Shown here piece after piece: positions 525 to 33,569 of a stretch of DNA of 64,000 nt. Below the pieces are notes generated by a model, which searched no databases, was not told where the DNA came from, and worked only from the letters and a program-made list of their open reading frames with translations. The first letter of the stretch is position 1, and every line of letters starts with the position of its first letter. The stretch comes from an uncultured Acidobacteriota bacterium (lineage in GTDB: Bacteria > Acidobacteriota > JAQAZP01): contig CAWIIB010000001.1 of the NCBI GenBank assembly GCA_963836075.1, forward strand, positions 1,760,001-1,824,000, given 5' to 3'. Both the position numbers and the translations under genes were made by a program.

Positions 525-2981
525 ATGTCCATTCGACTGTCGATCATTTACGCAGCCATCATCATGACACTGATCTGTGCCCTGCCGGCAACAGCCCAGT
601 GGTCCGATGACCCCACCGTAAACACCCCGGTCTGCACGGCCTCAGGAGAGCAGGGATATCCTCGGTCAGTGAGTGACGGCGCCGGAGGAACCATAGTCGT
701 CTGGATCGATTATCGCTCCGGGCTACAAGTCTATGCCCAGCGGTTGGACCATATGGGTAAACCGCTCTGGGCTCCCGATGGGATTGCGATCAACACCGAT
801 GGATCACTGGCAACCATTGCCAGTCCGTTGAGCGATGGAAACGGCGGAATGATCGTCACCTGGTGCAGCAACTACAACCCTTCCCATGGCTATGACCTGA
901 GAGTCCAGCGGGTGGACGGCTCGGGGTACAAACTCTGGACCGCCAGCGGTGTGGGGATCTGTGGAAGCTGTGGAGGACAAATCGACATTGTGGGTGACGG
1001 CCTGGGCGGCGCCATCCTCGCCTGGTCGGACCAACGCGATGACGGCACCAGCGGGCACGATATCTACACCCAGCGGCTGGATGCTTCGGGCAACACCCTC
1101 TGGACCACCGACGGCCTTAGCATCTGCACCGAAAACGGCGACCAGCTCCGCCCGAAGCTTGTCAACGACGGAACGGGAGGAGCGATCTTCACCTGGATAG
1201 ACGGTCGGTCTGCTGAATACGATATATATGCCCAGCGGGTCGATGCATCGGCCACCGTTCGATGGACCTTGAACGGAGTGGAAATCAGCGGTGATCCGGA
1301 TGTCCAGGTTTCCCCCATGATCGTCAGTGACGACAACAATGGCGCGATCATCAGCTGGGCCGACGGCAGCGCCGGCGGTTTCTATGGCTATTTTTTCGTT
1401 GCCCAACGGGTAAACAGTTCGGGCAGCCTGCTCTGGGGCACAGGAGGCGTTACCTTCAGCGATGTTATCGAGTCCTACTCTTACCCCTTTGACTCCCTGT
1501 TCGAAATGGTGCCTGACGGAGTGGGCGGTGCCTTGATCGCCTGGCACCAGCAAACACCCACATCGGATTTCTACGACGTCTATGCCCAAAGGCTTAACGG
1601 TTCCGGAAGCGAACTGTGGGCCAGTGGCGGACAGGTCATTTGTGCCAAACCAAACTTCCAGATTCATCCCAGGATTGTCTCCGACGGTGCTGGTGGGGCT
1701 ATCGTCTCCTGGCACGATAGCCGCACCTACTCTTATGACATCTACGCCCAGCACATAGACGCGACCGGCAGCATGCTCTGGACGACGGATGGCGAGGCCA
1801 TCTGTTCGGCTCCCCAGGGCCAACAGTACCCTGATATGGTCAGCGACTCATCGGGAGGTGCGATCATCGTCTGGCACGATAGCCGCGCAGGCGTGATCGA
1901 CGAACACGATCTCTACGCACAGCGCATTACCGCCGAAGGATGCCTGGGCCGTCAGGGTCCCTTCATCACCATGGCGGATGATGTTCCCGGCGACCAGGGC
2001 GGCATGGTGGATCTGAGCTGGACCCCCAGTTGCCTGGACGTATCACCCCGGCTCGATGTGACCCACTACTCGGTCTGGAGGCGGATTCCCGATGAGGCGA
2101 CCAGCCCTCGGAGCGATGAAGAGCGGTCCGGCTGGTCCTGGGTGACCGAAGTGACCGCCGGCTACCTTGATGACTATTCCGTTACCGTTCCGGCCTATGG
2201 GATCTACATCGGTACCGGGGACATCCCCTGGACCGACTACATGGTGGTGGCCCACACCGACGACCAGTGGGTCTACTGGGAATCGGCCGTGATCAGCGGA
2301 TACTCGATCGATAACCTGGCACCCGGAGCGCCGCTCGCTCTGACCGGCACAGCATGCGGAACGGATATCCGGCTGACCTGGTCCGCCTCCGGACAACACG
2401 ATGAGGATTTGGCCTGCTACCTGGTCTACCGCAACGACACGCCGGGCTTCGAACCCGACGAATCGATGCTGATCGGAACGGCTGACATCACATCCTACAC
2501 CGATTCACCTCCCGGCGCCGGCACCTGGCATTACCGGGTGACCGGGCGAGACGTCAACGGTAACGAGGGGCCGCCATCGGAGGAGGTCTCGACCGTTACA
2601 TCCCCGTTGTCAAAGGTTTCCGCCACGCTGACCTGTACGCCGACTTCGGGCATTGTTCCGTTCAGCAGCACCATGTCGGCACGCCTGGACAACCTCGACC
2701 AGCAACGTCCAGCCACCAGGATCGCCGGCCGGGTCGACGTTCAGTTGGCCAATGGCAGCAGCTGCAGTGGTTGGCGACAGGGGTGGACAAACGTGATTCG
2801 CGGCAGCCACCACAGCGTGACCTGGCTGATATCGTTCCCCCTCAGCAGTGCTGTGGTCGGGGAAAACGTCTTCATCCTCTCCGCCGCCGATACCACACCG
2901 GCACCATACAACCAGCCGCCGTTTTCCCCATCGGGCGGCACGGCAGCCGACAGCTGCACGGTGATCGCCGATGCGCCATGA
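525..2981 (+). CDS. Secreted protein: 8 'DGxGGAIxxW...DIYAQR' repeats (probable beta-propeller) + DVPGDQGG domain + FN3-like domain + PYNQPP C-terminal domain
   Basis: AGGAG RBS, Sec-type signal peptide (..ALPATA|QW), eight ~55-aa repeats, FN3-like segment (LTWSAS...YLVYR...WHYRVTGRDVNGNEG), C-terminal domain at 2613..2981. Confidence 0.9.
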   Translation: MSIRLSIIYAAIIMTLICALPATAQWSDDPTVNTPVCTASGEQGYPRSVSDGAGGTIVVWIDYRSGLQVYAQRLDHMGKPLWAPDGIAINTDGSLATIASPLSDGNGGMIVTWCSNYNPSHGYDLRVQRVDGSGYKLWTASGVGICGSCGGQIDIVGDGLGGAILAWSDQRDDGTSGHDIYTQRLDASGNTLWTTDGLSICTENGDQLRPKLVNDGTGGAIFTWIDGRSAEYDIYAQRVDASATVRWTLNGVEISGDPDVQVSPMIVSDDNNGAIISWADGSAGGFYGYFFVAQRVNSSGSLLWGTGGVTFSDVIESYSYPFDSLFEMVPDGVGGALIAWHQQTPTSDFYDVYAQRLNGSGSELWASGGQVICAKPNFQIHPRIVSDGAGGAIVSWHDSRTYSYDIYAQHIDATGSMLWTTDGEAICSAPQGQQYPDMVSDSSGGAIIVWHDSRAGVIDEHDLYAQRITAEGCLGRQGPFITMADDVPGDQGGMVDLSWTPSCLDVSPRLDVTHYSVWRRIPDEATSPRSDEERSGWSWVTEVTAGYLDDYSVTVPAYGIYIGTGDIPWTDYMVVAHTDDQWVYWESAVISGYSIDNLAPGAPLALTGTACGTDIRLTWSASGQHDEDLACYLVYRNDTPGFEPDESMLIGTADITSYTDSPPGAGTWHYRVTGRDVNGNEGPPSEEVSTVTSPLSKVSATLTCTPTSGIVPFSSTMSARLDNLDQQRPATRIAGRVDVQLANGSSCSGWRQGWTNVIRGSHHSVTWLISFPLSSAVVGENVFILSAADTTPAPYNQPPFSPSGGTAADSCTVIADAP

Positions 2982-3060
2982 ACAAATCGGGCCATCAGCC
3001 CCACCAGGCATACGGAGGCACCAGGTGAAAACGCAACGGATCAGGAAGAGAGGCCGAGCG

Positions 3061-6000
3061 ATGAAATCACAAAGGTTGATCTTACTCTCCCTCGTGACGA
3101 TGGGCATGCTGTGGGGCCTGCCCGCAACGGCGGACTGGTCGGTGGACACCACCGAGAACAATCCGGTCTGCACGGCGATGGGCTATCAGGATGATCCCGA
3201 GCTGGTGAGTGACGGGGCCGGCGGGGCGATCATTGTCTGGATTGATCAACGCACATATTCGACAACGGAATATGACATTTATGTCCAACGACTGGATGCC
3301 TCGGGCATTCCGCTCTGGACTGCTCAAGGAGCAGCTGTTTGCACATTTGCCGCCAGGCAAGCTGATCCCGCTCTGGTGGAAGACGGCTCCGGCGGGGCAA
3401 TCATCGTCTGGAGAGATTCCCGGTCGGGGTCGTACGACATCTACGCTCAGCGGGTGGACGCCGCGGGGAACATGCTCTGGACCACGGACGGCGTGGCATT
3501 GTGCTCGGCGGCCAACAACCAGCAATACCCGGAACTCACGAGCGACGGCGCCGGCGGGGCGATCGTCGTCTGGCACGATTACAGTTCGGGCGCCGACTAC
3601 GAAGTCTACGCCCAGCGGGTGGATGCCTCGGGCTCCATCCTCTGGGGTGCTGACGGCACCCTTGTCTGTACGGCGGCCAACTCCCAGTGGCGGCCCCGTC
3701 TGGCCAGCGACGGCGCGGGCGGGGCGATCATCGCCTGGTATGACTGGCGTAACGGTGTCGCCGCAAATGACATCTACGCCCAACGGATGGACGCATCGGG
3801 AAATCCACTCTGGACCACAGGCGGCGTGGCGATCTGCACCGCAAGCAGCACCCAGGACTACCCGTGGGTCGTGAGCGACGGTTTTGGCGGGGCGATCATC
3901 ACCTGGGAAGACCACCGCTTCGGTACCGAGGACATCTATGCCCAGCGGGTGGACGCCTCGGGCACTGTACTATGGACCACGAACGGATCTTCACTGTGCT
4001 CCGCGGCAGGTGACCAGAAACTCGCAAAACTGGTGGCTGACGGCAGCGGAGGGGCGATCATCACCTGGGAGGACGAACGCACGGGAGAAAAGGACATATA
4101 TGCCCGGAGGATCAATTCCACCGGCATCCTGCTTTGGGGGACCGACGGGATAGCCGTTTGTGCCGCCACGGGTGATCAATCCGCCCCCCGTCTGGTCAAC
4201 GACGGTTCGGGCGGGGTCATAATTACCTGGCAGGATTCACGGCCCGACAACGCCAGTCACATCTATGCCCAGCGGCTGAACGGATCGGGCAACGCTCGCT
4301 GGGCCATCGATGGCGTGGCGGTCTGCTCGGCGCCATCATACCGCTGGGTCCCGTATCCGATCAGCAATGGTTTGGGCGGCGCGATCATCGCCTGGGCAGA
4401 TGGACGGAACATTCCCCTGACAAAAGATGACATCTATGCCCAGCGAATCGGCCCGCACGGCTATCCGGGCGGAGACCACAGCCCGACGGTCACCGAAGTG
4501 ATCGACTACCCCGACGACCAGGGCGGGACGGTGGTGCTCAGTTGGTCGCCATGCGACCTGGACCAGGCGCCCCAGCAAGTGGTGACCCATTACGCGGTCT
4601 CCCGGCGGCAATCTCCGTCCTCGGCCTGGGAACAGGTGGAGGAGGTCACCGCCCTGTACCTGGGATGAGTACGCCAGCAATCCCCCGACCTATGAGATCT
4701 ACGGCGGCGGTGGAGAGATCCCCTGGACCGAATACAAGGTGGTGGCCCACACCATCGACCCGCTGGTCTTCTGGGAGTCGGCAGTGGTCAGCGGTTACTC
4801 GGTGGACAACCTCTTCCCCGGCGCCCCGCTGAACCTGGCGGCAACGACCTCGGGCACTGACGTCCTGCTCACCTGGTCGGCCTCCGGCCATCACGACGAA
4901 GACCTGGCGTTCTACCGGGTCTACCGCAGCGATGTCCAGGGCTCTGCGCCCAGCCTGGCCAACCAGATCGGGACGTCAGCCTCCACCGGCTACACCGACC
5001 CGGCTCCCGGCAACGGCACCTGGTACTACCTGGTGACCGGCGAGGACATCAACGGGAACGAGGGCCTGCCGTCCAATGAGGCATCCGCCACCACGGGATC
5101 CTCCGGCATGTTCACCAGTCCGGTGGACTACCCCGCAGGCAACGGCTCCCGTTGCGTGGCCATCGGCGACCTTGATGACGACGGGGTCAACGACCTGGCC
5201 GTGGCGAACTATTCCAGCAATGAATTATCCGTGCTTCTTGGCCTTGGAGACGGCACATTTTCCGCAGCAACCGGAGCCTCCGTGGGTTCCTCCCCGGTGA
5301 CGGTGGCGATCAGCGACCTGGACACCGATGGGGTGCTCGACCTGGTATCGGCAAACCTGGGGGATGATTCGGTGGCGGTGCTGCTGGGCAATGGCGACGG
5401 TTCGTTTGCCGCGGCCCAGTTCTTCCCCACAGCGGTTGCACCCTATTCCGTGGCGATCACCGACCTGAACGGCGACACTTTCCCGGATGTCTCGGTGGCG
5501 AACTCCGGCAGCAACAGCGTCTCGGTGCTCCTGGGGACCGGCGACGGGACACTGGCCTCCGCTGTTTCCTACCCCGTGGGCACGGAACCATTGGATATGG
5601 CCGCCGACGATCTTGATGGCGACACGGTTCCCGACCTGGCCGTGACGAACAAAATGAACAACAGCGTGTCGGTCCTGCTGGGCCTCGGCGACGGAACCTT
5701 TGCGGCCGCGGTGGACTACGCCGCCGGGACCAGACCTCATGGTCTGGCGATCGGCGACATGGACGGTGACACAATCCCCGACCTGGTAACGGCGAACAGC
5801 GGCTCGGACACCGTTTCAGGTACTGCCCGGTCTCGGTGACGGGACCTTTGCCGCCGCGGATCACTATGCGGTCGGCGCGTTTCCCACTTCGGTCAGAATC
5901 GTTGATCTGAACGGGGACGCGCTGCCCGACTTGGCCGTGACCAACTTCAATGCCGACACCATTACCATACTGACGGGAACCGGTAATGGCAGCCTGGCTG

Positions 6001-6518
6001 ACGATGCCCACTACGCCGTCGGTGATGAACCCGCCTGGGTGGCGAGCGGCGCTCTGGACGACAATGACTCGCCTGACCTGGCCGTGGCGAACAACGGTGA
6101 CGGGGATATCTCGGTGCTGCTCAACCTGAACATTTTCCCGCCACCATCAACCATCTCCGCGTCATTCACCTGCACCCCCTCCGCGGGCACGGTGCCCTTC
6201 AGCACCGCCATGTCGGCGCAGATGGCCAACCTTGAACCGACCCGACCGGCCACGCGGGTAGCCGCACGGATCGATGTCCAGCTGGCCAACGGCACCAGCT
6301 ACGGCAACTGGCGGCGGGGCTGGACCAATGTGAGTCAGGGCAGCCAGTACAACATAAACTGGGTTCAGCCGATCCCGGCGGTGGGCACGGTAATCGGAGA
6401 CAACATCTTCACGCTGACCGCGGAGGACATCACGCCCTCACCATACAACCAGCCGCCCTATCCCCCGGCCGGGGGTACGGCGACGGACGGTTGTATCGTG
6501 AGTGCCAGTGCGCCGTGA
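3061..6518 (+). CDS. Secreted paralog of 525..2981 with an added 7-repeat FG-GAP region and a PYNQPP C-terminal domain; interrupted by two +1 frameshifts (about 1151 aa corrected)
   Basis: ORFs 2971..4668, 4739..5839 and 5931..6518 join after removing one G at 4662-4664 (restores YLDEYASNPPTYEIY, colinear with the paralog) and one G at 5819-5820 (restores DTVSVLPGLGDGTF). Signal peptide starts at ATG 3061. Confidence 0.85.
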
Positions 6519-6576
6519 GGACTCCGGCGGCATGAAGCTTTTATTCTGACGACCCGAGGGCCCAGGGCGGGGGGCG

Positions 6577-8303: not shown

Positions 8304-8317
8304 CGGGGAGAGACTTC

Positions 8318-13846: not shown

Positions 13847-15511
13847 TCAGGGAGCCATACCGGTAACGGTGCACTCACTCGTGTCCAGAGCTCCCGAGGC
13901 GGGATAGGGCGGCTGGTTGTAGGGCGACGGCGTGACATCCGCGGCATACAGGGTGAACAGGTTGTCTCCCAGCACTCCCGCCACGGCGGGAATGTTCTGG
14001 TTCCAGGCGACGACCATACTGGAACCGGGAGCCACATTGGCGTACCCGGCTTTCCAGATACTGTAGTTGGTGCCACTCGCCAGGCGGACGTCGATGCGGC
14101 CGGCCAGCCGGCGCAGCTGCCCGGCATAGAGGTTCTGCAGGGTCACCGTCATGGTGGTGACGAAGGGGATGGTGCCCCAGGCCGGCTGGCAGGTCAGGCC
14201 GGCCCGCAGCGTGAGGAAATCCCCCGGATCGTAGTGGTATCCCAGATCCGCCGTGCCCTGGTCGGAGACCTGGTCGGTGCGCGTGGTGAACTGTCCGAGG
14301 CAGACGGTTCCGCTGCCTGCGGCGAAACAGACATCGTTCGCCGGGAGGTTCCCGCCATTGACGCAGGGGCTGTCCACCGGTTGCCCGGCGGCGGTCTGGC
14401 TCAGATACCAGTCCCCCCGGGGCCCGGCAATGAACAGCGGATCGGCATCCATGTTTCCCATGCCGTACCACAGGCCCTCGATGTCGGTGTAGGTGATGGA
14501 GGGAGGATCGCCGGAGACCACCCGCACCTGCTCCAGCGTGTTGCCCCAGATAATCGAGCGGAGGATGGCGGCGTCCGCCTCCTCGCAGGCCACACCCCCA
14601 CCGTTGATGTCTGCACTATTGGCCACCACGGTGCAGTTGGATATCACCGCCGAAGCCGCGCTGCAATACGCGCCGCCGCCCTGCTGGTCGGCACTGTTGC
14701 CCGCCAGCAGGCAGTTGGTCATCGTCGCCGGCGACGTGTCGAAAAAGATACCGCCGCCATGGCCGGCACTGTTCGATACAATCTCGCAGTTGGTGATGGT
14801 TGCCGGGCTCCAGCAGTAGATGCCGCCGCCGGACAGGGCCGTGTTCCCCGAAACCAGATTGCCGGTGATTGTCGGGTGAACGCCGACTCCGGCACAGGTC
14901 ACGCCGCCGCCGTACCGTCCCGCCGAGTTCGAGGTGATGCTGTTTCCGGCGATCAGCGGGGTCGAACCGGTATAGACGAAGATCCCGCCGCCGTTGTTGC
15001 TCCCCGAGGCCGTGTTCAGGGTGATGACGTTGCCGGTGATCAGCGGTGAGGCCCGCAGGCAGTAGATGCCGCCGCCGGTGGTAGCGGAATTCTGCGAGAT
15101 CAGGTTACCGTCAATGGTGGGGGCTGAATCGGCGCAGTAGATGGCGCCGCCGTAGCTGGCGGTGCCGTGCTGAATGGTAAACCCCCGGGCCACCGAAGCA
15201 GCGCCTTCACCACTCTGGAACAGGAACCCCCGGCCAACCCACTGGCAGTCGATGATGCAGGCGGCCGGCCCGTTCTCCGACTGGACGGTGATCGCCTTGC
15301 CGCCGTAGTCGAGGTTGCGGTTTCCCGGCCCGCTGTAAGAGCCGTCGGCCACCAGCACGGTGTCCCCGCTGGCGGCGGCGTCGATGCCGGCCTGGATGTC
15401 CGGCTGATCGCCGGGGACATGGACCGTTGCCGCGGGCAAAAGCCCCGGGACGGCGGCGGCCAGCAGGGCGGCGGCCAGCAGGAAGTTCAGCGGGTTCATC
15501 GATGCGCTCAT
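13847..15511 (-). CDS. Secreted right-handed beta-helix repeat protein + PYNQPP C-terminal domain
   Basis: Signal peptide, VHVPGDQPDIQAGIDAA..GDTVLVADG cap, GGGIYC/N..I..N repeats, TTRTD..GYHY linker, C-terminal domain at 13847..14212. Confidence 0.9.
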   Translation of the reverse strand: MSASMNPLNFLLAAALLAAAVPGLLPAATVHVPGDQPDIQAGIDAAASGDTVLVADGSYSGPGNRNLDYGGKAITVQSENGPAACIIDCQWVGRGFLFQSGEGAASVARGFTIQHGTASYGGAIYCADSAPTIDGNLISQNSATTGGGIYCLRASPLITGNVITLNTASGSNNGGGIFVYTGSTPLIAGNSITSNSAGRYGGGVTCAGVGVHPTITGNLVSGNTALSGGGIYCWSPATITNCEIVSNSAGHGGGIFFDTSPATMTNCLLAGNSADQQGGGAYCSAASAVISNCTVVANSADINGGGVACEEADAAILRSIIWGNTLEQVRVVSGDPPSITYTDIEGLWYGMGNMDADPLFIAGPRGDWYLSQTAAGQPVDSPCVNGGNLPANDVCFAAGSGTVCLGQFTTRTDQVSDQGTADLGYHYDPGDFLTLRAGLTCQPAWGTIPFVTTMTVTLQNLYAGQLRRLAGRIDVRLASGTNYSIWKAGYANVAPGSSMVVAWNQNIPAVAGVLGDNLFTLYAADVTPSPYNQPPYPASGALDTSECTVTGMAP

Positions 15512-15554
15512 CGGTCTCTCTCGTTTCCCGGCGGGCCGGTCCCGCGGCCGCCGG

Positions 15555-17420
15555 TCAGGGCGCCACACCGAGCACGATACAGCCGGCGGTGCCGGAACTG
15601 CCGGACGGTGCGAACGGCGGCTGGTTGTAGGGCGGCGGCGTCACGTCCACCCCGGTCAGGGTAAAGCGGTTGAGGCCCACCACACTGCTCAGTGCCGGGA
15701 TGGTCTGGTTCCACGATACATCCCGGCTCTCGCCGGGCCCCAGGTTGAGCCAGCCGGCTTTCCAGTTGTTGTAGTTCTGGCCGGCGGCCACCGCCGCATC
15801 CAGGCGGCCGGCCAGCCGCCGCGGGCCATCGACCAGCGTGCTGGCCAGCGTGACCCTGAAATTGACGGAAAAGGGAACCGTGCCCGAGGCGGGGGTGGCG
15901 GTCAGCCCCACAGCCACCGTGTCCACCGCACCACGTGCGTAGTGATAGCCGATGTCCGCCTGACCCTCGTCGCCAACCCAGTCGGTCCGGGTGGTCAGTT
16001 CGTCGAGACAGACCGTCACCATGTTGGGGGGTGGTGACTGGAACGCGATGGGGAAACAGATCGAGGCCGCCGGCACACTGCCGGCGTCGAGGCACGGGCT
16101 GTCCGCGCCGTGCCCGGTGACCACCCGGCCCAGGTAGTAGTCGCCCAGCGGCCCGGTGACGAAGAGCGGGTCGCCGTCGATCATCCCGGCCCCCCAGTTC
16201 AGGGTGCAGCCGTATTCGGCAAACACGCCGGCCAGGCCGCCCTGCACCAGCGAGTGGCTGATGTCCAGAGTCGAAGGATGGCTGCTCTCACCGATATGGA
16301 TCTCGCTGCCCAGGGGCGATGTATTGCCGGAGAGGATGGTGTCCACCACGGTGGCTGCCGACTCATAGCTGCAGGAGAGACCGCCGCCCCCGACAACCGC
16401 CGAATTGCCGGAAATCGTGTTCCCGCGAAGCAGCGGGTCGGAAAAAGCGCCGCTGCAGACGCCGCCGCCGATCCCATGGCTGTGGTTGCCGCAGATCAGG
16501 TTATTGCTGATTTCAGCGGGTGCACCGCCAAACAGAAAGATCCCACCGCCTTCTTCGTTGGCGGTGTTGCCGCTGATCACGTTGTGGGTGAACACCACCG
16601 TGTCGATATTGCTCAGTTCGACGCCGCCGCCCGTGTCGTGGGCCGTGTTTCCGGATATCTCGCAATGGGAAATGGTTGGCACCCCGAACGCACAGTACAG
16701 CCCTCCACCATGGTTTCCGCCGCTGTCCCCGTCTGCGTCGTTGGCGGAGATCAGACAGTTGGTGACCGCCGTCTCCGAGGAGTAGAGATAGAGCCCGCCT
16801 CCGCTGTTGCCGGTGTGTTCACCGGATACCGTGTTGCCGGTGACCGTACAGCCGTCGATGTCCGAAGCGTCGTAACGGCAGTAAATGCCGCCGCCCAGCG
16901 CCGCAGCGCCAAAGGTGGATGATTGGACCGAGTTGCCGGAGATGGTACAACGGGAGATCAGGGCATTTGAGGTGTCGAGAAAGATGCCGCCGCCCCGCCA
17001 GCTGGAACTGTTCTGGGTGACCAGGCAGTCGACGATGGTGGGGGACGAGTCGACGATGTGCAGGCCGCCGCCGCCCTCTCCCCCGTCGTCGCCATTGCGA
17101 ATGGTGAACCCCCGGACCACCGAATCCCGGCCTTCACCGCTGGTGATGGTGAACCCGGGTGAAAGCCCCTCGCAGTCGATGATGCAGTTTTCCGGGCCGT
17201 TGAGGGAGCGCACGGTGATCGCCTTGCCCAGCAGGTCGAGGTCGATGTTGCCGTAGAAGGTATAGGTGCCGTCGGCCACCATCACGGTATCCCCGGCAAC
17301 CGCCACATCGATGGCCGACTGGATGTAGGGATAGTCCCCGGGGACATGAATGACCGAGGCACCCCCGGCTGTGGGGATCAAGAGGAGAACCAGGATCGCG
17401 GCCATTGTGTATCGGTGCAT
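15555..17420 (-). CDS. Secreted right-handed beta-helix repeat protein + PYNQPP C-terminal domain
   Basis: Same architecture as the neighbours. ATG 17420, C-terminal domain at 15555..15920. Confidence 0.9.
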   Translation of the reverse strand: MHRYTMAAILVLLLIPTAGGASVIHVPGDYPYIQSAIDVAVAGDTVMVADGTYTFYGNIDLDLLGKAITVRSLNGPENCIIDCEGLSPGFTITSGEGRDSVVRGFTIRNGDDGGEGGGGLHIVDSSPTIVDCLVTQNSSSWRGGGIFLDTSNALISRCTISGNSVQSSTFGAAALGGGIYCRYDASDIDGCTVTGNTVSGEHTGNSGGGLYLYSSETAVTNCLISANDADGDSGGNHGGGLYCAFGVPTISHCEISGNTAHDTGGGVELSNIDTVVFTHNVISGNTANEEGGGIFLFGGAPAEISNNLICGNHSHGIGGGVCSGAFSDPLLRGNTISGNSAVVGGGGLSCSYESAATVVDTILSGNTSPLGSEIHIGESSHPSTLDISHSLVQGGLAGVFAEYGCTLNWGAGMIDGDPLFVTGPLGDYYLGRVVTGHGADSPCLDAGSVPAASICFPIAFQSPPPNMVTVCLDELTTRTDWVGDEGQADIGYHYARGAVDTVAVGLTATPASGTVPFSVNFRVTLASTLVDGPRRLAGRLDAAVAAGQNYNNWKAGWLNLGPGESRDVSWNQTIPALSSVVGLNRFTLTGVDVTPPPYNQPPFAPSGSSGTAGCIVLGVAP

Positions 17421-17455
17421 GTTCTGACTCCCCGTCGCTGCCTTTCCGGTTCCGC

Positions 17456-19255
17456 TCACGGGATGATCCCCGTCACTTCGCAGCTGTCCGTGTCCTGACC
17501 GCCAGAGGGCCAGTACGGCGGCTGGTTGTAAGGTGTGGGCGTCACGTCCTCGACGAGGAAGTGGAACCGGTCACTGCCCTCCAGCGCACCCAGCGCCGGC
17601 AGGGCCTGGTTCCAGGACACCACCAGCCCGTCCAGCGGGAGCACGTTGGCATACCCGGTCCGCCAGCCGCTGACCGTGGAACCGTCACCCAGCTCGATGT
17701 CGATGCGGCCGGCCACACGCCTCAGCTGATCGGCGTAGAGGTTGCTCAGTGTCACGGTCATCGTCGTGGCAAAAGGCAACAGGCCCAGACTCGGCTGGCA
17801 GATGATCGTCGCGCCCACGGTGCTGCAGTCGGAGGGCCGGTAGTGATAGCCGATGTCCGCGATCCCCTGGTCGCCCAGGTGATCGGTACGGGTGGACAGC
17901 TGGTTCAACCAGGCGGTTCCGTTTCCCGTGGCGATGGCGGTACCGGCGGCCTGGCCCTCACCGCTGTCGAGGCAGGGGCTGTCCGCCGGCTGGCCGGCAA
18001 CCGTCTGCCCCAGGTAATATCCGCCCAGCGGGCCCGGGGTGAACAACGGATCGCCATCGATCATGCCGTCGCCCCAGTGAAGCGTTGCGCCAGATACGAC
18101 CCAGACTCCTGACTGGCCCCCCTGCACATCGGAGTAGCGGATGGTCACCGTGGTGTCGGCGCCCACCGAAATCTCATCGCCGTAGAAACTCTGGTTGCTC
18201 CAGAGGATACAGTTGACCAGGGTGGCCGAGGTGTTGTCGCTGGTGGAGTAGAGACCGCCGCCATGTTCGACGGACGTATTGCCGAAGATCGTGGAACTGC
18301 GGATCAGCGCAGCGGAACGGGCGACATAGATCCCGCCGCCGTAATTGGCGCTGTTTCCCGAGATCTCGCAGTTGGCCAGGTCGGGATCGGAGGACCAGGA
18401 GAAGCAGCAGCCGCCCCCGAAGGACGAGGCTGCGTTGTCGCGGATGCGGTTGTTGTGGATCACCGCTGCCGAGTCGTCACAGTAGATGCCGCCGCCGTGG
18501 CTCGCTGTATTCCCCCGGATCAGGTTGTCGGTTATCGTGGGGGCCCCACTGTCACAGTTGATACCACCCCCTTCGTAGGTGGCTGAATTGTTCTCGATGG
18601 TGTTGTCGGTGATGACGGCGAACGAGTTGACACAGCCGACCCCGCCGGAGTTGTTGGTAATGGTGTTGTTTCGAACCAGTGGATGACTGTTGTTACTGCA
18701 GGAAATTCCGCGGCCGCCCGTATTCCCGTCCACCAGGTTGCCTTCGATGATCGGGCTGCTGGTCCAGCCGCAGTAAACGCCGCTGTCGCCGTTGTTCAGG
18801 ATCGAGTTGTTCCGGATCACCGCACCACCGTGACAGATGATGCCGCCGCCGCTGTTGTCCATGATGATGCAGTTCCTGATGGTTGGACTGGAATTCGATG
18901 AGCTGTAAACCACGTGGTAGGGGGATCCGTGGATCAGTGTCAGTCCGTCGATGACGGAGTCTTCACCCTCCCCGTGGCCGAACAGAAAGGCCCGCCCGTC
19001 ATTCTCACAATCGACGATGCAGAAATCCGGCCCGCTCTCGGAGGCCACCGTGATCGCCTTGCCCTGGAAGTAGTTGTTCCTGTTGCCGTCCCCGGTGTAG
19101 ATGCCGTCGGCCAGCAGCACGGTGTCACCGGCCGACGCCGCGTCGATGGCCGCTCCGATGGTGGGCTGGTCACCGGGCACATGGATCACCGCAGCCGGGA
19201 GGGAAACGGACAGAAACAGGAATAGAATCGTGATGACGACACGGCTGATGGTCAT
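17456..19255 (-). CDS. Secreted right-handed beta-helix repeat protein + PYNQPP C-terminal domain
   Basis: AGGAG RBS, ATG 19255, signal peptide, beta-helix repeats, C-terminal domain at 17456..17821. Confidence 0.9.
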   Translation of the reverse strand: MTISRVVITILFLFLSVSLPAAVIHVPGDQPTIGAAIDAASAGDTVLLADGIYTGDGNRNNYFQGKAITVASESGPDFCIVDCENDGRAFLFGHGEGEDSVIDGLTLIHGSPYHVVYSSSNSSPTIRNCIIMDNSGGGIICHGGAVIRNNSILNNGDSGVYCGWTSSPIIEGNLVDGNTGGRGISCSNNSHPLVRNNTITNNSGGVGCVNSFAVITDNTIENNSATYEGGGINCDSGAPTITDNLIRGNTASHGGGIYCDDSAAVIHNNRIRDNAASSFGGGCCFSWSSDPDLANCEISGNSANYGGGIYVARSAALIRSSTIFGNTSVEHGGGLYSTSDNTSATLVNCILWSNQSFYGDEISVGADTTVTIRYSDVQGGQSGVWVVSGATLHWGDGMIDGDPLFTPGPLGGYYLGQTVAGQPADSPCLDSGEGQAAGTAIATGNGTAWLNQLSTRTDHLGDQGIADIGYHYRPSDCSTVGATIICQPSLGLLPFATTMTVTLSNLYADQLRRVAGRIDIELGDGSTVSGWRTGYANVLPLDGLVVSWNQALPALGALEGSDRFHFLVEDVTPTPYNQPPYWPSGGQDTDSCEVTGIIP

Positions 19256-19365
19256 TCGACCTCTCCTGATCCGGTGAGACTGCTGATGGGCGTGATCAGC
19301 GTTTCGCGCGCACACGAGAGCGGCATCCGTTGCCGGATGGCGTTCACTCGCCTGCTGATGTAGTC

Positions 19366-23861: not shown

Positions 23862-23862
23862 G

Positions 23863-25887: not shown

Positions 25888-25914
25888 GGAAATCAGCCCC
25901 TCTGAGCGGTGACC

Positions 25915-28900
25915 TCAGTGGCAGAGCGCCTCGGCCGGCACCTGCTGCCGCGAGGTCTCCGGGCCGGACCACCAGAGTTCCAGCACCGCGTCCACGCCGT
26001 CCTGGAAGTATTCGATGGCCAGTGAGTGAAGTCCGGGGGCCAGGGCCAGCTCGGCCTTGACCTCGCGACTGCCGTGCAGGCCGTCATTGGCGATCACTTC
26101 CTCACCGTTGAGCAGCAGCCGGCTGCCGTCATCGGAGTTGAGGCCGATGGTGTAGACCCCTTCCACGGACACACGGAGATAGCCTTCGAGGGTCACACCG
26201 AAATTCACGTCCCGGGCGTCGTCGGGCAAGGACACCGTCGGCAGAACAGCAGTGCGGTCCGGTGTGATGGTGCCGAAATCGGGCAGTTTCTCCCAGTCCC
26301 CCTCGAAGTAGCGGCAGTCCAGTCCGTCACTCGTGGGCTCGGCGGTTACGCCTGGTTGCGGCTCCAGCTTGCGGAATTCCGCCCGGGCCACGAAGGAACT
26401 GTCCAGGCCGGGGGCAAAGGCTCGGGCCCGCAGTTGCGCCGGTTCGGCAACCACGATCGGTCCCTTGTACAGCATGGCGTTTTCCGCCGGGTCGCTGCCG
26501 TCCAGGGTGTAGCGGATCTCAGCGCCCCTGTTGGGGGACGAGAGGACAACTTCCAGGCTGTCGGTGAACGCCCGTGCTTCGGTCTCCACCACCACCCCGC
26601 TCCGCTCGGTCCGGTCATAGAGCGGCCAGGCCGGCACTACCTCGGCGTTGGGATTGACTGCCACGGTGACTGCCAGCAGTTTCACCGCCGGGTCGTCGGG
26701 AAGGGTCAGCATGCGAGCACCGGGAGGGAGAACTAATTCGTAGCGAAAGAGGTTGGTAAAGGTGTAAGACTGGTTCTCGCCGTCCGGTCCGTGGCGGTGC
26801 GAGCCAACCCAGGCCACCGGCGTCTCGTTGATGTATGCCGGGAGAATCTGCTCCGGGTCATGCACCAGCAGGTCGCCGTGCAACCGGCTGTCCCACTGCC
26901 CCACCGGGCTGGCCCAGTCCTCGATCCAGCGCTCCTCCACCCGGTCGTCGATACTGAACGCGGCCGTGCGCCCGCCGTCCACCGCGGCGGCCAGCAGGTA
27001 GAGACGGTTCCAGCCGCCGGCGGGCAACGGGATCTTCTGCCCCCGGCATTCCACCACGTTGCGCGCCCCGGCCCTGTCCCGGCCCATGGCAAAGGTGATC
27101 CCCTCGCGAACCACCTTGTCCGGCAGCAGGTCGCCGGAGATGCTGTTGCCCCGGCCGTCGAAATCGCCGTCGGTGCGACCGCTGTCCAGGCTCACCCCGT
27201 CGCTGTTGAACGGCAGGTCGAGGGGCCGGCTCTGCGGCGGGTCGAGGGTCACCGGCGGCTCACCCGGCTCGATGGCAAAGGTGCGCAGCTGGCAGGGTGC
27301 CAGGCGACTGACGCGCAGCATTCCCCTCCCGTCCCTCTCATCCTCAAGTGGCTCTTCGACGCCGTTCAGTTCGGCGAAAGATCGGACTGGCGCCGCCGGC
27401 ATCGCCACCTGGACGTTATCCAAACCCTGTCCGGTCTTATCCAGCAGGCGGACCACCACCCGGTCATCATCTTCGGCCAGCTTCACCGCTTGTATCGCCG
27501 CGTGCCTCGTTGAGCTGCGGAGGAGTGAGAACTCCCGGTTCAGAGGTCCGGGATGCTTTGGGACCCGAAAGGCCATCAGCGGCTGGTTGAACTTCGCAGC
27601 TTCGTAAGAGGGGACCACACCCGTAAAGAACCAGCTGTCCGGGTGGCCCACCACGGCGAATCCCAGACGGTGGGATCCCAGGTCCTGGGACTTCTGGTCG
27701 TCGATCCAGCCCCAGCGATCATTGACCCGCGGGGTGTGAAGCAGGGTCAGGCGAAGAGTGTTCTCCGCCGGTCGGTCCCAGCCATAGCGGCTGTCGGTAA
27801 GCAGGGCAACACCCCCGTCGTTGTTCGGTGCGCCAAGGTCCACCCACTGCTGAGCCGGTACCTCGTAGAGTTGCTCCTTGTTGACCCCGCGTTGGATGGT
27901 CCCCACCCCCAGGTCGTAGGTAGCGGTGGCCTGCTCCACCGCCAGGGGAAAGACTGCCTTGAGCAATGTGCCCGGCGACTTCCACTGAATCAGGTTATCC
28001 ACCTCCACCCGGCTGCCGGCACCGCCGGCGGCAAGACTCACCCGCTGGATGAACTCCGATCCGCCTGCCCGACGGACAATCTCCAGCACGACCCGGGCCG
28101 GACCGCTCTCGACCGCCCCTATTTCCATCGGCCCGGTCACCACTTCACGGGGCTCGGCCATCAGGTCAGCGTAGTCGATCTCCCAGGCAGCCCATTCCTC
28201 GGGCTCGTTGTCCAGCAGCTGAAGGGTCAGCGGGCCGGCCAGCAGTTCGCGGCCCAGTTCCTTGTCGAAAATCGAGGCGATGTCGCCGTTGTCGTCAACA
28301 CTCACCCGGTATCGGCGGTTCTCCAATCCCTGCTCGTTCACCAGCAGCCCGGTGTCCAGGGCACAGGGAGCGTCGGCAGGCCGTACGTCGAATACCGAGA
28401 AGCTGACCGGGAGGACCGGGGCGATGAACACCAACCGCACGGTGTCGCCCTCCGTTGACAATATCTGCGACGGTACTTCGTACTCGTAAGCACCGTCGTC
28501 GTCCGTACCGTAGACCCGGACAAAAGGCGGCGCGCCGCCAGGAAAACGCACCTCGGCCTCCACCACGTCTTCGCGAGAGCCGGCCAGGGGGTTGTAGACC
28601 ACCAGCGGGGTCCCCTCGACCTCGGTGTCCAGGGCGCGGCTCACCGCGGCCACCGAATCGGTGAGCACCGCGGCGAACTGGTTCAGCGAGATCAGCTGGT
28701 CATTCCAGGAGTGGACGTAGGCCTCGGGGATGCTGGTGCCGGTGAGGTCGTCGTGGAACTGGTGGGCGAGGAAGCGGGTCCAGGCCTCGCGCAGGGTCTC
28801 CCGGGGGTACTCGGCGCCGCCCAGCCAGTGGGCGGCCACCGCGGCCCGCTCGGCGGCGTCGGCCAGCAGCTCGTTCTGGCGGTTCCAGCGCTTCATCGCC

Positions 28901-29850
28901 GACTGCGAGGTGTAGCAGCCGATGCCATGGTCGGTCATCAGCAGTTCGCCCTTGTAGCGCGGCAGCCGCTCCAGCTGTTCCGGGGTCAGGTCGCGCACCA
29001 GCTGGTCCGATGCGGCGCTGATCACGGTGAGCGGGCCGTCGCTTCCCAGGCTGGCCTGGAGCCAGGCCACCGACTCGTCGGTGGGCGCCCCGCCCCGGTC
29101 GCCGGTGCCGAAGTAGCGGGCGGCGGCGTAAATCCCCGAACTCTCCCCCTGCTCCATGGCGGTGGACAACCACTTCTCGTCATGGCTCAGGTCGCTCTTG
29201 ATCTTGCTCACGTATTCGCCGGGGTTGAGCACCGCCAGCAAGGTGGAGCCGTCCACCCCCTCCCAGAGCCCGATGGGGAAGGGCGTACCCACCGACGAGC
29301 CCCAGGTCAGCTTCTGGGTGGAGAACATGTCGACACCGCAGTGGTTGGCGATGGCGGGCAGGGCATAACCGAAACCGAAACAGTCGGGGAGGAAGACATC
29401 GCGGCTGGTCTTGCCGAACTCGCGTTTGAAAAACCCGTTGCCGTAGAGCGCGTGACGGACCAGCGACTCCGGTGAGGGCACGTTGACGTCCACCGCGTCG
29501 AGCCAGCTGCCGGCCACCCGCCAGCGGCCCTGCTCGACGTAGCCGCGCAGCCGTTCGTACTCTTCGGGGTAATACTCCTTGATCAGCTGGTAGCGGAAGG
29601 CGCCCTCAAAGCTGAAAACGTAGTCGGGGTACTTCTCGAAGAGAGCGAAGTTGTCGTGCAGCGTGGCCGGGAGATACTCGTCGATGGTGGTGCGGATATC
29701 CCAGCGCCACTGAGTGTCCAGGTGGGCCGTGCCCACCACGTAGAGCTTCGGGGCCTCCACGGCATCCTGGGCCGTCACGGCCCCGGCGGCCAGGACCGGC
29801 ACACAACAGATGATGAACAGCACGCGCACGGCGTTGCCCGATCGGAACAT
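25915..29850 (-). CDS. GH38 alpha-mannosidase with FN3-associated (chitobiase C-terminal-like) and PA14 domains
   Basis: AHLDTQWRW, FLPDCFG, QFHDDLTGTS. EIRYTLDGSDP module. PA14-like YTIGLNSDDGSRLLLNG..NDGLH. Confidence 0.93.
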   Translation of the reverse strand: MFRSGNAVRVLFIICCVPVLAAGAVTAQDAVEAPKLYVVGTAHLDTQWRWDIRTTIDEYLPATLHDNFALFEKYPDYVFSFEGAFRYQLIKEYYPEEYERLRGYVEQGRWRVAGSWLDAVDVNVPSPESLVRHALYGNGFFKREFGKTSRDVFLPDCFGFGYALPAIANHCGVDMFSTQKLTWGSSVGTPFPIGLWEGVDGSTLLAVLNPGEYVSKIKSDLSHDEKWLSTAMEQGESSGIYAAARYFGTGDRGGAPTDESVAWLQASLGSDGPLTVISAASDQLVRDLTPEQLERLPRYKGELLMTDHGIGCYTSQSAMKRWNRQNELLADAAERAAVAAHWLGGAEYPRETLREAWTRFLAHQFHDDLTGTSIPEAYVHSWNDQLISLNQFAAVLTDSVAAVSRALDTEVEGTPLVVYNPLAGSREDVVEAEVRFPGGAPPFVRVYGTDDDGAYEYEVPSQILSTEGDTVRLVFIAPVLPVSFSVFDVRPADAPCALDTGLLVNEQGLENRRYRVSVDDNGDIASIFDKELGRELLAGPLTLQLLDNEPEEWAAWEIDYADLMAEPREVVTGPMEIGAVESGPARVVLEIVRRAGGSEFIQRVSLAAGGAGSRVEVDNLIQWKSPGTLLKAVFPLAVEQATATYDLGVGTIQRGVNKEQLYEVPAQQWVDLGAPNNDGGVALLTDSRYGWDRPAENTLRLTLLHTPRVNDRWGWIDDQKSQDLGSHRLGFAVVGHPDSWFFTGVVPSYEAAKFNQPLMAFRVPKHPGPLNREFSLLRSSTRHAAIQAVKLAEDDDRVVVRLLDKTGQGLDNVQVAMPAAPVRSFAELNGVEEPLEDERDGRGMLRVSRLAPCQLRTFAIEPGEPPVTLDPPQSRPLDLPFNSDGVSLDSGRTDGDFDGRGNSISGDLLPDKVVREGITFAMGRDRAGARNVVECRGQKIPLPAGGWNRLYLLAAAVDGGRTAAFSIDDRVEERWIEDWASPVGQWDSRLHGDLLVHDPEQILPAYINETPVAWVGSHRHGPDGENQSYTFTNLFRYELVLPPGARMLTLPDDPAVKLLAVTVAVNPNAEVVPAWPLYDRTERSGVVVETEARAFTDSLEVVLSSPNRGAEIRYTLDGSDPAENAMLYKGPIVVAEPAQLRARAFAPGLDSSFVARAEFRKLEPQPGVTAEPTSDGLDCRYFEGDWEKLPDFGTITPDRTAVLPTVSLPDDARDVNFGVTLEGYLRVSVEGVYTIGLNSDDGSRLLLNGEEVIANDGLHGSREVKAELALAPGLHSLAIEYFQDGVDAVLELWWSGPETSRQQVPAEALCH

Positions 29851-29985
29851 ATCCCGCTCCCCTTTCCACTGCTGACAGGCCGGCCGTTCCGGCCGGCCAG
29901 GGAAAAAACTGGCACAAATTCGACCCGGATAGCGTAGAGTATTGAGGATACCAATTTCAAACGGGTTTTCCGGAGGAGGGACAGG

Positions 29986-30558
29986 ATGGAGCAGCTGGTG
30001 GGGATCTGTATCGGCATCGGCCTCAGCGCGGCCAGTGGTTTCAGGCTTTTCGTGCCTTTTCTCGCCCTGGGCATCGCCAACCGGATGGGCTTCATACCGC
30101 TGGGAGAAAGTTTTCAGTGGATGGGCAGCCTGCCGGCGATCACCGCCTTTTCCGTAGCCCTGCTGCTGGAAGTGGGAGCCTACTACATCCCCTGGCTGGA
30201 CAACCTGCTGGATACCATTGCCACCCCTGCAGCGGTGGTGGCCGGGACCCTGCTCACCTACTCCCTGGTGGGAGACATTTCGCCGTTCTTCAAGTGGTCC
30301 ATGGCCCTGGTCGCCGGCGGCGGCGTGGCCGGCACGGTGCAGACCGGCAGCGTGGCCGCCCGGGGCACCTCCTCGGCGTCCACCGGGGGTGTGGGCAATC
30401 CGGTGCTCTCCACCGTCGAACTGGGCGGCTCGGTCTTCCTCTCCATCCTCTCGCTGCTCGTCCCGCTGGTGGCCATGATCCTGGCCCTGGTCCTCTGCTT
30501 CTTCCTCCTGCGCACCTCGCTGCGCTTCTTCCGCCGCCGGCGGGCCACCATCGCCTGA
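29986..30558 (+). CDS. DUF4126-family membrane protein
   Basis: GIGLSAASGFRLFVP, AYYIPWLDNLLD, TGGVGNPVLSTVE. Several TM helices, GGAGG RBS. Confidence 0.85.
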   Translation: MEQLVGICIGIGLSAASGFRLFVPFLALGIANRMGFIPLGESFQWMGSLPAITAFSVALLLEVGAYYIPWLDNLLDTIATPAAVVAGTLLTYSLVGDISPFFKWSMALVAGGGVAGTVQTGSVAARGTSSASTGGVGNPVLSTVELGGSVFLSILSLLVPLVAMILALVLCFFLLRTSLRFFRRRRATIA

Positions 30559-30583
30559 GTTTCGCCGGACGATCCCCGTACAG

Positions 30584-30610
30584 AAAAAGGGCCCGGGAAA
30601 ACCCGGGCCC
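30584..30610 (-). terminator. Rho-independent terminator of the C25 protease gene
   Basis: GGGCCCGGG-TTTT-CCCGGGCCC followed by TTTTT on the minus strand, 30 nt after the stop at 30641. Confidence 0.8.
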
Positions 30611-30640
30611 AGGAATGCTCGCTTCAGGTGATGCCCCGTC

Positions 30641-33569
30641 CTACTTCATCGAGCCAACCACCGTGCAGGCATCGCTGTCGGTGTCGCCGGAGGGAGCGAA
30701 GGGCGGCTGGTTGTAGGGAGCGGGTGTCACGTCAACACCGATCAGGGTGAAGACGTTGCTGCCCACCAGGGAAGCCAGGCCAGGCAGGCTCTGGTTCCAC
30801 ACGTTGCTGTATGTCTCGCCGGCGCTGAGATTGGTCCAGCCGGCACGCCAGTTGGTATAGGGGGTGCCGTTGCCGATCACCATGTCGATCCGGCCGGCGG
30901 CCCGGCGGTTCTCACTGGTCAGGTTGGCCAGCGACACCGCCATCTGGGTGGCAAAGGGCAGCACGCCACTGTCCGGGGTGCAACCGATGGTCACCTGCAC
31001 CGTGTCGGTGGGCTGGGTGCTGCCGGCGCCGAGGCCCCAGATCTCCACGTCGTCGATGTTCCAGCCGGAGTAGGCCCAGGCGCCGGTGGAGGCCACCCGG
31101 TGACCCCAGCGGAGGTAGACAGTGGCTTCGCCGTCGGCCATGGACGAAAGGTCGAACACCTGCTCGGACCACGAGCTGTCAGCCACAGTGCTGGTGCCGT
31201 TGTCCCACAGCGGGGACCAGCTGCTGCCGTCCACCGACGCTTCCAGCGTCTGGTAGACGTAGGTCTGGTAATCGGAGTTGAGCCAGCGTTGGAACTTGAG
31301 GCTCACCTGGGTGAACTCGCTGCAGTCGATTGCCCCGGTGGTCAGGTACTGGTAGCTGCCCACGACGTTGGCGTAGTCGCCGTTGAGGTTGATGCCGCAG
31401 ACGTTGGCCCCGCTGGCACCCGACGTCGGGTCGGGGTTGCCGTAGGAGGCGCCGCCGCCGCCGGTGGGCACGCCATAGGCCCATTCACCGGCCATGGTCC
31501 AGCCGGGGTTGCTGTCCATGTTCCACTCGGTACTGCACCACCGGCACGCCCACCGTCAGCTGGGAGGTGCGGGTGCAGTCGCCGTCATGGTTGGTGGTGT
31601 TGACGAAGTCCACGTCACCGAAGTAGTCGCCGTTGTCCAGCGAGCTGGCGCTGGCGTTTATCGAGACGGTCACCGTGGCGGTGCCCAGGGCGGGGATGGT
31701 GCCGCCGGTGCTGCTGATGTCGAGCCAGGAGGTGCTCTCGCTCACCGTGTAGTTCAGCGCGTAGGTCTCGTAGTTGGTCAGAGTGTAGACCAGGCTGCCC
31801 GGGGTGAAGGGGCCGCCGTTCTCGCCCTCGGCCACCAGGCCGCCGCCGGGGCTGACCTTCATCCCGGTGGGCGGGGCGGTGGTGCCCACCACCCGCAGCG
31901 ACGGGTCGCCGAAGACGTGCCAGGTGTCATACATGCTCACGCCGCCGGAACCGTATTCGTCGATCATCGAGCAGGAACCGGCAAAGCAGAGGGCGCCGTA
32001 AGTGTTGTACGTCCCGGCCAGATACGCGGCGTTGAAGTGGTCCTGGCCTTCCATGGGCGGGTCCCAGGACTGGTTGATCGAGCTCATGTAGGTCCCCACC
32101 GCGCCGGTGGGCTCGCTGCCGTTGGTCGCCCGCAGCCAGGCCTCGGCGAAGCAGGTGTAGCCGTCGAACTGGCCGTTGACACAGGCCACCGAGACGATGA
32201 AGGGCAGCAGGTTGTCGTTGGTCAGCGCATTGACGTTGCTGTTGGAGAAGCCGGTGGTGCTCCAGGAGGTGGTGGAGCCGTGGCCGCAGTAGTTGATGAT
32301 TCCGCGGCCGGCGTTGAGACCGCTGGTCACCTGGGCCGCCGTTCCGCTGGGGTCGTAGATCTGGTCCACCAGGGTGTAGTCGCCGGCCAGCATGTCGGTG
32401 CGGATGTTGTTCAGGTGCTCGTTGTCATACTCGCCGTCGTCGCCGGGACCCTGGTTGGAGGCCACGCCCATGCCCTGCCAGAACCAGCTCTCCGTGGTGT
32501 ACTGGCTTTCTTCATACTCCACGGTGCGCAGCACCTGAGTGTCCACGTCGGCCGCCGTCTCGGCGGAGAACCGGCCGACAAAGATGTCGGGGTAGTCGTC
32601 GCCGCCGGCCACCTTGGCGTAGCTGGGGTCGGAGGAACCGCCCGAGGCCGACGGCGTGTCCACCTGGGCCCCGTCACCCACCAGCAGCACAAAGGCCAGG
32701 TCGCTGGTGTTGTAGGCGTTCTGAATGTAGTTGGTGATGGCGGTGGCGTTGTTGCCGATGGTGGATACCGGCACCACGGTGGCCGGGATGCCGATGGAGG
32801 TCTTGTGGTCGGCCAGCACCTGGGCATTTGAGGTCCAGGCATCGTGGCAGATGATCAGCATGTCGCCGGCCTCGTCCAGCGGATCGTAGCGGCCGTCGAG
32901 GTTGTAGTTGATGAAGTGGCCGCCATAGATGTCGTGGAACGAACCGTTGAGCTTTCTCTGGTAGGACCGCTCCAGCACGTTCACCTGGCCCGGGCCGTCA
33001 GCGACCACTTCCACGGTCATCGAGGTGTAGACGCGGAGTACGTGAAGCACCGGGTTGTACTGGAAGGGGTTCACCGTCACCACCACGCCGCGGTGGTCGC
33101 GCATGATATAGGGCTCGCGCAGCTGCGCCAGGTCGGCGGGCCAGAAGGCGTTCTCCTGGTAGGCCTTGCCAAAGGTGTAGGGCACGCTGTCCTTGTCCAC
33201 GGTGCGGGGAACGAATCCCTTGGAGGGCGCCACGTCCACGTCACTGATCTCGTAGTAGCGGCTGTCCAGCACGCGCAGGGCCATCTTCGCGTTGTCAGGG
33301 ATGATCACGCTGCGCGACACGTCGGGCAGCGCCGGCAGGCCGGCCTCGTGCTTCAGGCTCTCCCGGCCCAGCTCGAGGACCATCCAGGGCTCTCCGTCGA
33401 TGCGGACGGCGCTGCGGGTGAACTGGTCGAAACTGTATTCCACCACCACGCGGTCAGCGCTGTTCTCCAGGACGGTGACGTCAACCGACTCGCCGGCCCA
33501 GGCGCCGGCAGTGATCAACGCCGCCAGCAGCAGACAGAACGAAAAGAGTGCGGGATACCTTCTACTCAT
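30641..33569 (-). CDS. Gingipain-like C25 cysteine protease: propeptide + catalytic domain + Ig-like + jelly-roll domain + PYNQPP C-terminal domain; one +1 frameshift (about 975 aa corrected)
   Basis: Signal peptide, propeptide (LPDVSRSVIIP, APSKG, PYIMRDHRG, PFQYNPV), FVLLVGD, catalytic NYCGHGS and SVACVNG, WHVFGDPSL. Removing one base at 31529-31530 joins 31485..33680 to 30641..31519 (VQYEWNMDSNPGW). Confidence 0.9.

Follow-up and report, generated by a model that had tools for sequence, protein, structure and literature searches.

Entire secretion and surface-display systems are defined by C-terminal sorting domains, those of T9SS (the type IX secretion system), of exosortase, of sortase and of the cellulosomes being examples. 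The T9SS type A C-terminal domain (CTD; TIGR04183 / PF18962) is a folded immunoglobulin (Ig)-like beta-sandwich that sits at the extreme C-terminus of Sec-exported proteins, is restricted in lineage and is borne by many cargoes that are unrelated to one another, among them C25 peptidases of the gingipain type, peptidyl-arginine deiminase, and M14 and S8 peptidases. The CTD of RgpB from Porphyromonas gingivalis is an Ig-like domain of 7 strands and ~65 ordered residues that is cleaved by PorU (PMC4804311), and this species has ~30 CTD proteins (PMC5562754). Dockerin type I (PF00404), a Ca-binding duplicated helical module of ~60 residues, is a C-terminal modular docking unit found on many proteins, and the PEP-CTERM/IPTL-CTERM signals (PF18203 for the latter), composed of a short motif, a transmembrane helix and a basic tail, are lineage-specific C-terminal sorting signals, likewise on many exported proteins. 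Here we describe a C-terminal tail of ~120 residues borne by six predicted proteins in a 64,000-nucleotide stretch (the window; positions 1,760,001 to 1,824,000 of contig CAWIIB010000001.1, assembly GCA_963836075.1) of the genome of an uncultured Acidobacteriota bacterium, which has traits in common with each of these modules. On balance, and with modest confidence, we read it as an undescribed Ig-like C-terminal sorting or anchoring domain for the Sec-exported proteins of one class-level lineage. We propose, by analogy, that it may act in the manner of a T9SS CTD, a dockerin or a PEP-CTERM-type signal, yet it would be a member of none of these families. This reading fits best because the tail is encoded by ~4% of genes, has an end that is fixed to the residue, is carried by exported proteins and likely contains a disulfide, is joined to T9SS-like cargo, and is exchanged in homologues for dockerin, FlgD_ig or IPTL-CTERM.

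An earlier note on this DNA had claimed six homologous tails with a common set of motifs, each ending seven residues after a cysteine and each attached to an unrelated, exported cargo. Translation and alignment bear this out for the following six carriers.

525..2981, + strand: carrier 1, 818 residues, with signal peptide, repeat-rich cargo and PYNQPP tail at 2613-2981
2971..6518, + strand, in three frames (2971-4668, 4739-5839 and 5931-6518): carrier 2, with signal peptide, propeller-type repeats, FG-GAP repeats and tail at 6150-6518
13847..15568, - strand: carrier 3, secreted right-handed beta-helix protein with a NosD match and tail at 13847-14212
15555..17459, - strand: carrier 4, secreted beta-helix paralogue (Beta_helix, 2.3e-24) with tail at 15555-15920
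17456..19315, - strand: carrier 5, secreted beta-helix paralogue (Beta_helix, 1.2e-27) with tail at 17456-17821
30641..33680, - strand, in two frames (31485-33680 and 30641-31519): carrier 6, gingipain-like C25 peptidase with Propeptide_C25 and Peptidase_C25, a MAM-like domain and tail at 30641-31003

Across the alignment of the six tails, identity to the first is 40-53%, mean column identity is 63% and 28 columns are invariant. All six have the motifs P..G..PF, R.A.R.D, W..G..N, W....P, G...F, D.TP.PYNQPP and C.V in common, and the distance from the last Cys to the stop is exactly 7 residues in 6 of 6. Judged by eye, every carrier has the appearance of a Sec-type signal peptide at its N-terminus, and the cargo is indeed unrelated: three proteins match Beta_helix/NosD, one FG-GAP and one C25, and one is without a Pfam family. 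The own-genome profile search yields exactly six matches inside the window range and no others; therefore the M16, M14 and GH38 proteins annotated in the window are without the tail, again as the earlier note had it. The GH38 alpha-mannosidase (1310 residues; 25915-29850, - strand) ends in Fn3_assoc/CHB_HEX_C and PA14 instead, from which it follows that the tag is not used by every large exported enzyme of the genome.

The genome assembly (6.23 Mb in 10 contigs, 94.7% complete) carries frame errors, and the census was taken over stop-to-stop open reading frames (ORFs) at a domain threshold of independent E-value (iE) < 1e-5, with a first profile made from the six tails and a second rebuilt from 184 full C-terminal copies. 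The six-tail profile finds 219 domains in the genome, 199 of which end within 5 residues of the stop. With the rebuilt profile there are 221 domains in 220 ORFs, and 205 of the domains extend to the end of the model. Of these, 199 finish no more than 5 residues before the stop, and the carriers amount to about 4% of genes. Four of the six non-terminal exceptions were inspected: two run on for another 7-8 residues, one has a second copy after it in the same protein, and one precedes a long Cys-rich region. The other two are short ORF fragments, and at most two copies are truly internal. The copy ahead of the Cys-rich region (C9:2819390-2822476, - strand) occupies residues 480-609 of an ORF of 1029 residues, is without the last Cys and is followed by a Cys-rich region of ~420 residues; it is the sole clear internal copy with no second tail after it, and may reflect a gene fusion or a lost stop. 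Two tail copies per protein are seen in P0013-P0017 and in ORF C1|-1|766760|769934, in one case with a MAM-like domain between them, so that a tail need not be terminal as long as another, terminal one comes after it.

Within the 184 full copies the last Cys is kept in 134, and 125 of these end exactly 7 residues beyond it, while P[YF]NQPP is present in 155 and the final dipeptide is AP in 110. Mean pairwise identity among these copies is 48% over 121 core columns, which argues for an old family spread by domain shuffling and not for a recent repeat. Signal-peptide-like N-termini, as scored by a home-made heuristic, are found on 130 of the 184 carriers versus 933 of 3560 control ORFs of at least 400 residues; many of the heuristic-negative carriers are short or frame-broken ORFs, and the same heuristic is positive for 52 of the 59 complete carriers of the sister genomes.

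The tail is restricted to a single lineage of uncultured Acidobacteriota at the level of a class. Among 201 genomes sampled across this phylum it is found only in three species genomes, which belong to one genus and are all the members of their GTDB order and class in the collection, with at least 150, 139 and 112 matches per genome, and no match at E<=1e-5 was obtained in the other 198. These three genomes are the only ones to represent the lineage. A motif-seeded scan of one genome per species (185,579 species) gives loci in only two metagenome-assembled genomes (MAGs) besides this one, and the submitters of one of the two labelled it 'Acidobacteriota bacterium'. When 1.84 billion representative proteins were searched in full with HMMER, 497 matched at E<=0.001, 455 of them at 1e-10 or better. 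The best stretch runs to the protein C-terminus in nearly all of the best 150 of these 497, a few of which have two stretches. From 5.8 billion clusters a word-indexed search retrieves 5 proteins. Many copies per genome, a consistently C-terminal position, signal peptides on the carriers and taxonomic restriction are thus all as the earlier note had predicted, and nothing was found of what it had named as speaking against its proposal, namely a match to a known domain, frequent internal copies, carriers that are not exported or a low copy number.

AlphaFold2, run on an alignment of 76 tails with that of carrier 3 as its first sequence, predicts with a pLDDT of 93.2 and a pTM of 0.83 an all-beta, Ig-like sandwich with 8 DSSP strand elements, in which a 16-residue loop, T-P-x-P-Y-N-Q-P-P-[YF]-x-x-x-G-D, precedes the last strand. 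One Cys in the first strand and one in the last are both present in 127 of the 184 copies and both missing from 27, whereas 23 copies have the first only and 7 the second only (odds ratio 21, Fisher p = 1e-12). This covariation suggests that the pair forms a disulfide staple between the first and last strands, which would imply folding outside the cytoplasm. The tail of carrier 4 (15555-15920) has Ala in place of the first Cys. Fold searching with VIA-align gives Z 9-12 over about 100-113 residues at a sequence identity of 5-17%, and Foldseek a TM-score of at most 0.65, the best matches being RbmA (4be5, Z 12.0), the AlkC Ig domain (11.1), the transglutaminase C-terminal barrel (11.0) and CARDB 3idu (10.1), with macroglobulin MG domains also appearing. 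No T9SS CTD, cohesin or carbohydrate-binding module (CBM) stood out among the matches listed in the two fold searches. Domains of the Ig/fibronectin type III (FnIII)/CARDB-like group, among them RbmA, CARDB, the transglutaminase barrels and the MG domains, thus have their fold in common with the tail as modelled, but no model of theirs matches it (PF07705 is unmatched at E up to 10) and none of them is known to serve as a tag that is spread over masses of proteins and kept strictly at the C-terminus. Prediction of a complex of two tail copies gave a score of 0.00 and a mark of 0.42, which counts neither for nor against binding.

Family searches agree with the claim of the earlier note that the tail has no named family. 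Pfam and NCBIfam searches of the carriers (the latter at E up to 1) leave the tail region unmatched, and the 76 tails searched against Pfam at E up to 10 hit just 8 families, scattered and with one member each, without any CBM or lectin family, PF18962, PF13860, PF00404 or PF07705. The best match of a profile search of the PDB sequences has an E of 0.16 and points to no family. The best score in the ESM Atlas, 0.81, is inside the chance range, and an Atlas lead towards a cluster of which 22% is CARDB was rejected, its score of 0.79 being below the level where chance matches occur. Full-text searching of the literature for 'PYNQPP' gave no paper, and the titles and abstract openings of the papers listed on C-terminal sorting or type IX secretion CTDs in Acidobacteria hold nothing relevant.

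In the main rival explanation, the tail would be a binding module that suffices by itself, in the manner of a lectin, a CBM or a matrix adhesin, and its carriers would leave the cell by a general exit (type II secretion, for instance) and then stick non-covalently to the cell's own lipopolysaccharide or exopolysaccharide, or to an environmental polymer, with no dedicated reader. The likeness to FnIII, CARDB and CBM-like sandwiches, headed by RbmA, a Vibrio biofilm scaffold protein, and the conservation of aromatic and amide residues are consistent with such a role, which would also account for dedicated machinery not being found. The genome moreover has three Secretin-family matches above the Pfam cut-off, two of them strong, and a route for folded proteins therefore exists. 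Modules of this kind are, however, usually tolerated at internal or N-terminal positions, whereas here 199 of 205 copies are terminal with an end fixed to the residue. No CBM or lectin family is matched at E up to 10, the cargo consists mostly of peptidases and repeat proteins and not of glycoside hydrolases, and the modules that replace the tail in C25 orthologues are of the sorting and docking kind and not CBMs. We consider a self-sufficient anchor of this type unlikely, while taking it more seriously than the other rivals discussed below.

The cargo was surveyed in 102 stretches from this genome and two sisters, 85 of which were scanned against Pfam at E<=1e-5, with a family matched by 56. 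Peptidases are represented by C25 (5), S8 (6), M14 (3), M28 (3), M23 and trypsin, the M14 cargo bearing CarboxypepD_reg, and repeat families by FG-GAP (10), Beta_helix (3) and BNR/sortilin (6). Further cargo comprises CotH+LTD (2), arylsulfotransferase (3), LVIVD (2), PAD_porph (the Porphyromonas-type peptidyl-arginine deiminase), cytochrome c and others. By analogy, this is the sort of repertoire that the T9SS of Bacteroidota carries.

Homologues of the C25 cargo, at 54-66% identity by best local alignment, reach a common ...GWN[VIL]DD..I[WVF][GA] junction after the MAM-like domain, past which different modules follow. In one homologue, P0191, this module is Dockerin_1 (28.6 bits, over the cut-off), with P0176 and P0186 matching below the cut-off; in P0254 it is FlgD_ig and in P0248 IPTL-CTERM (PF18203). 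The tail therefore occupies the very position that known docking or sorting modules hold in other lineages. Several of the homologues of the 820-residue C25 cargo (30641-33680; P0173-P0281) come from MAGs named Planctomycetota or Phycisphaerae by their sources. Since 54-66% is unusually close for different phyla, the comparison of these sequences hints at horizontal transfer of the C25 cargo with replacement of its C-terminal module.

The same junction bears on the possibility that the tail docks in the way of a cohesin-dockerin pair, plugging many enzymes into a repeated receptor of a surface scaffold and giving multi-enzyme complexes there. Dockerin stands at this junction in close C25 homologues, several of them Planctomycetota or Phycisphaerae by source (among the 120 homologues listed, 12 come with a precomputed PF00404 match, and for P0191 it was confirmed), and with ~200 carriers per genome the tail is about as numerous as the dockerin families of cellulosome producers. 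Tail and dockerin have in common their modular, C-terminal placement on many proteins; they differ in build, the tail being all-beta, ~120 residues long and without the Ca-binding repeats of dockerin, and none of the 76 tails matches PF00404. No scaffold or receptor repeat was found either, though no systematic search was made for one, and we regard a docking function of this type as very improbable. With IPTL-CTERM the tail likewise has the junction in homologous cargo in common, along with its character as a lineage-specific C-terminal feature of many exported proteins. It differs from PEP-CTERM/IPTL-CTERM in ending ...C.V....P without a hydrophobic helix, in accord with the claim in the earlier note that it has no transmembrane helix and is not PEP-CTERM-like, and exosortase (PF09721) has no match in the genome.

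As to T9SS, the resemblance set out at the beginning extends to the predicted beta-sandwich, position, export and cargo, and it is on this ground that the tail might be thought a very divergent T9SS CTD, read by a T9SS that is reduced, or diverged past recognition, and in which a PorU-like C25 peptidase serves as sortase. The cargo mirrors the classical T9SS set (gingipain-like C25, PAD_porph, M14 with CarboxypepD_reg, S8, LVIVD), the tail is predicted to be a C-terminal beta-sandwich as the seven-stranded, PorU-cleaved RgpB CTD is (PMC4804311), and PorU-like proteins are present in G000 (201.8 bits) and G026 (218.4 bits). The sequence models of the type A CTD do not match, however: none of the 76 tails hits PF18962 at E up to 10, nor PF13860, NCBIfam is without a match at E up to 1, and TIGR04183 goes unmatched in the six-frame translation of the genome, although the control genomes were silent for this model too. 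That the tail is neither a T9SS CTD nor a dockerin by sequence, as the earlier note had said, is therefore upheld by the PF18962 and PF00404 searches. Models for PorV, SprA, GldM and PorP (NF033710, TIGR04189, TIGR03517, TIGR03519) have 0 matches in the 94.7%-complete genome, with controls that responded for PorV only and were silent for the other three of the four; since the control genomes were mostly silent, the sensitivity of the T9SS-model searches is unproven. FlgD_ig has one weak match in the genome, and hhalign against a FlgD_ig-bearing homologue gives a probability of 0.2. The tail further differs from the RgpB CTD in its ~120 residues against ~65 ordered ones, 8 predicted strand elements, covarying Cys pair and 16-residue Pro-rich loop, and its ~220 copies stand against the ~30 CTD proteins that PMC5562754 gives for P. 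gingivalis. T9SS CTDs are also missing among the fold matches listed, an absence that does not exclude the fold. Taken together, we judge a divergent T9SS improbable.

The PorU-like C25 peptidase itself, P0161 (C1:1027244-1030054, - strand; locus L114:8244-11054), begins with a signal peptide, ends in its C25 domain and bears no tail. It scores 201.8 bits against NF033707 over model positions 106-733, below the 420-bit cut-off, with its counterpart in G026 at 218.4 bits. Homologues occur in 80 of the 201 genomes of the phylum, the unpublished G151 included, and no counterpart above 75 bits was found in G007, which is among the three genomes with the tail. Its neighbours are a radical-SAM/SPASM/PqqD gene, an HprK-related kinase A gene and PFOR, with no envelope genes among them. 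Because of this spread, the missing G007 counterpart and the non-envelope neighbours, P0161 was rejected as a tail-specific sortase.

Returning to the carriers in the window, carrier 1 (525..2981) has no Pfam family and a weak match to the TIGR04275 beta-propeller repeat, its tail being matched by the own-genome profile at C1:1762586-1762978. Carrier 2 (2971..6518) has TIGR04275 repeats as well as FG-GAP_3 at 1.2e-34, the FG-GAP match lying in the 4739-5839 frame. The three beta-helix paralogues (13847-19315, - strand) lie head to tail with stop/start overlaps at 15555-15568 and 17456-17459, and a G-Y-H-Y motif immediately precedes the tail in each; they probably arose by tandem duplication and form a single operon. 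Two carriers (2971-6518 and 30641-33680) are interrupted in this assembly, each being read in more than one frame. The frame of the C25 carrier is broken at about 31520-31530, a position across which the orthologues in the sister genomes (L037, L041) are contiguous. A Tex-like gene in the window (40955-43113, - strand) is split into two ORFs as well. Because the sister C25 orthologues are contiguous and the Tex gene is split too, the sequence comparison suggests that the breaks in the two carriers are probably long-read assembly indels rather than pseudogenes. Elsewhere in the window, a TonB-dependent receptor ORF (51557-53191, - strand) is only 544 residues long, a truncation taken as a further sign of such indels.

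Under the reading that we favour, of the tail as a sorting or anchoring domain, a carrier would first cross the inner membrane via Sec. The tail would then fold in the periplasm, where the putative disulfide would staple its first and last strands. A lineage-specific partner would next read the invariant Pro-rich loop, D-x-T-P-x-P-[YF]-N-Q-P-P, together with the fixed last strand, C-x-V-x-x-x-P-COOH, and would finally carry the cargo over the outer membrane or fix it on the cell surface. Several observations weigh against such a scheme. No reader or partner of the tail was found, and P0161 is at once too widespread in the phylum and missing from one tail-bearing genome. The near-invariant residues W65, R66, N71, W82, Y110, N111 and Q112 would equally suit a glycan-binding face, and the fold is, as modelled, a generic Ig/FnIII/CARDB-like sandwich without a specific match. 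A Pro/Thr-rich linker or cleavage motif was looked for ahead of the tail and none was found, the 30 residues upstream not differing from the cargo in composition. Signal peptides were scored by a home-made heuristic whose control set includes spurious ORFs, and the evidence as a whole is computational. The proposal of the earlier note, a lineage-specific signal for export or for surface or scaffold attachment, is nevertheless supported, in part by the occurrence of dockerin, FlgD_ig or IPTL-CTERM at the same junction of orthologous C25 cargo; recognition by a partner, and export or anchoring by the tail, are functions that we infer. A more specific version gives the tail the role of export and attachment signal in an undescribed, non-T9SS outer-membrane secretion or surface-display pathway that would serve ~4% of the genes of this class-level lineage; we hold it to be possible but, at present, on the unlikely side.

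The finding means that one uncatalogued domain marks ~220 exported proteins, many of them peptidases, in a deep acidobacterial lineage where exosortase and the T9SS core, bar a sub-threshold PorU-like peptidase, went undetected. Should the tail turn out to be a self-sufficient anchor, it would be a new surface-display handle. On either reading, annotation of hundreds of 'hypothetical' proteins would improve, and a family model could be added to Pfam or NCBIfam. If a machine does read the tail, the carriers would form a ready cargo list, and the tail a bait, for a new outer-membrane pathway; and if that pathway is indeed an undescribed one apart from T9SS, it would, together with the PorU-like C25 peptidases in 80 of the 201 genomes of the phylum, point to a phylum-wide family of such systems in which each class has evolved a C-terminal domain of its own.

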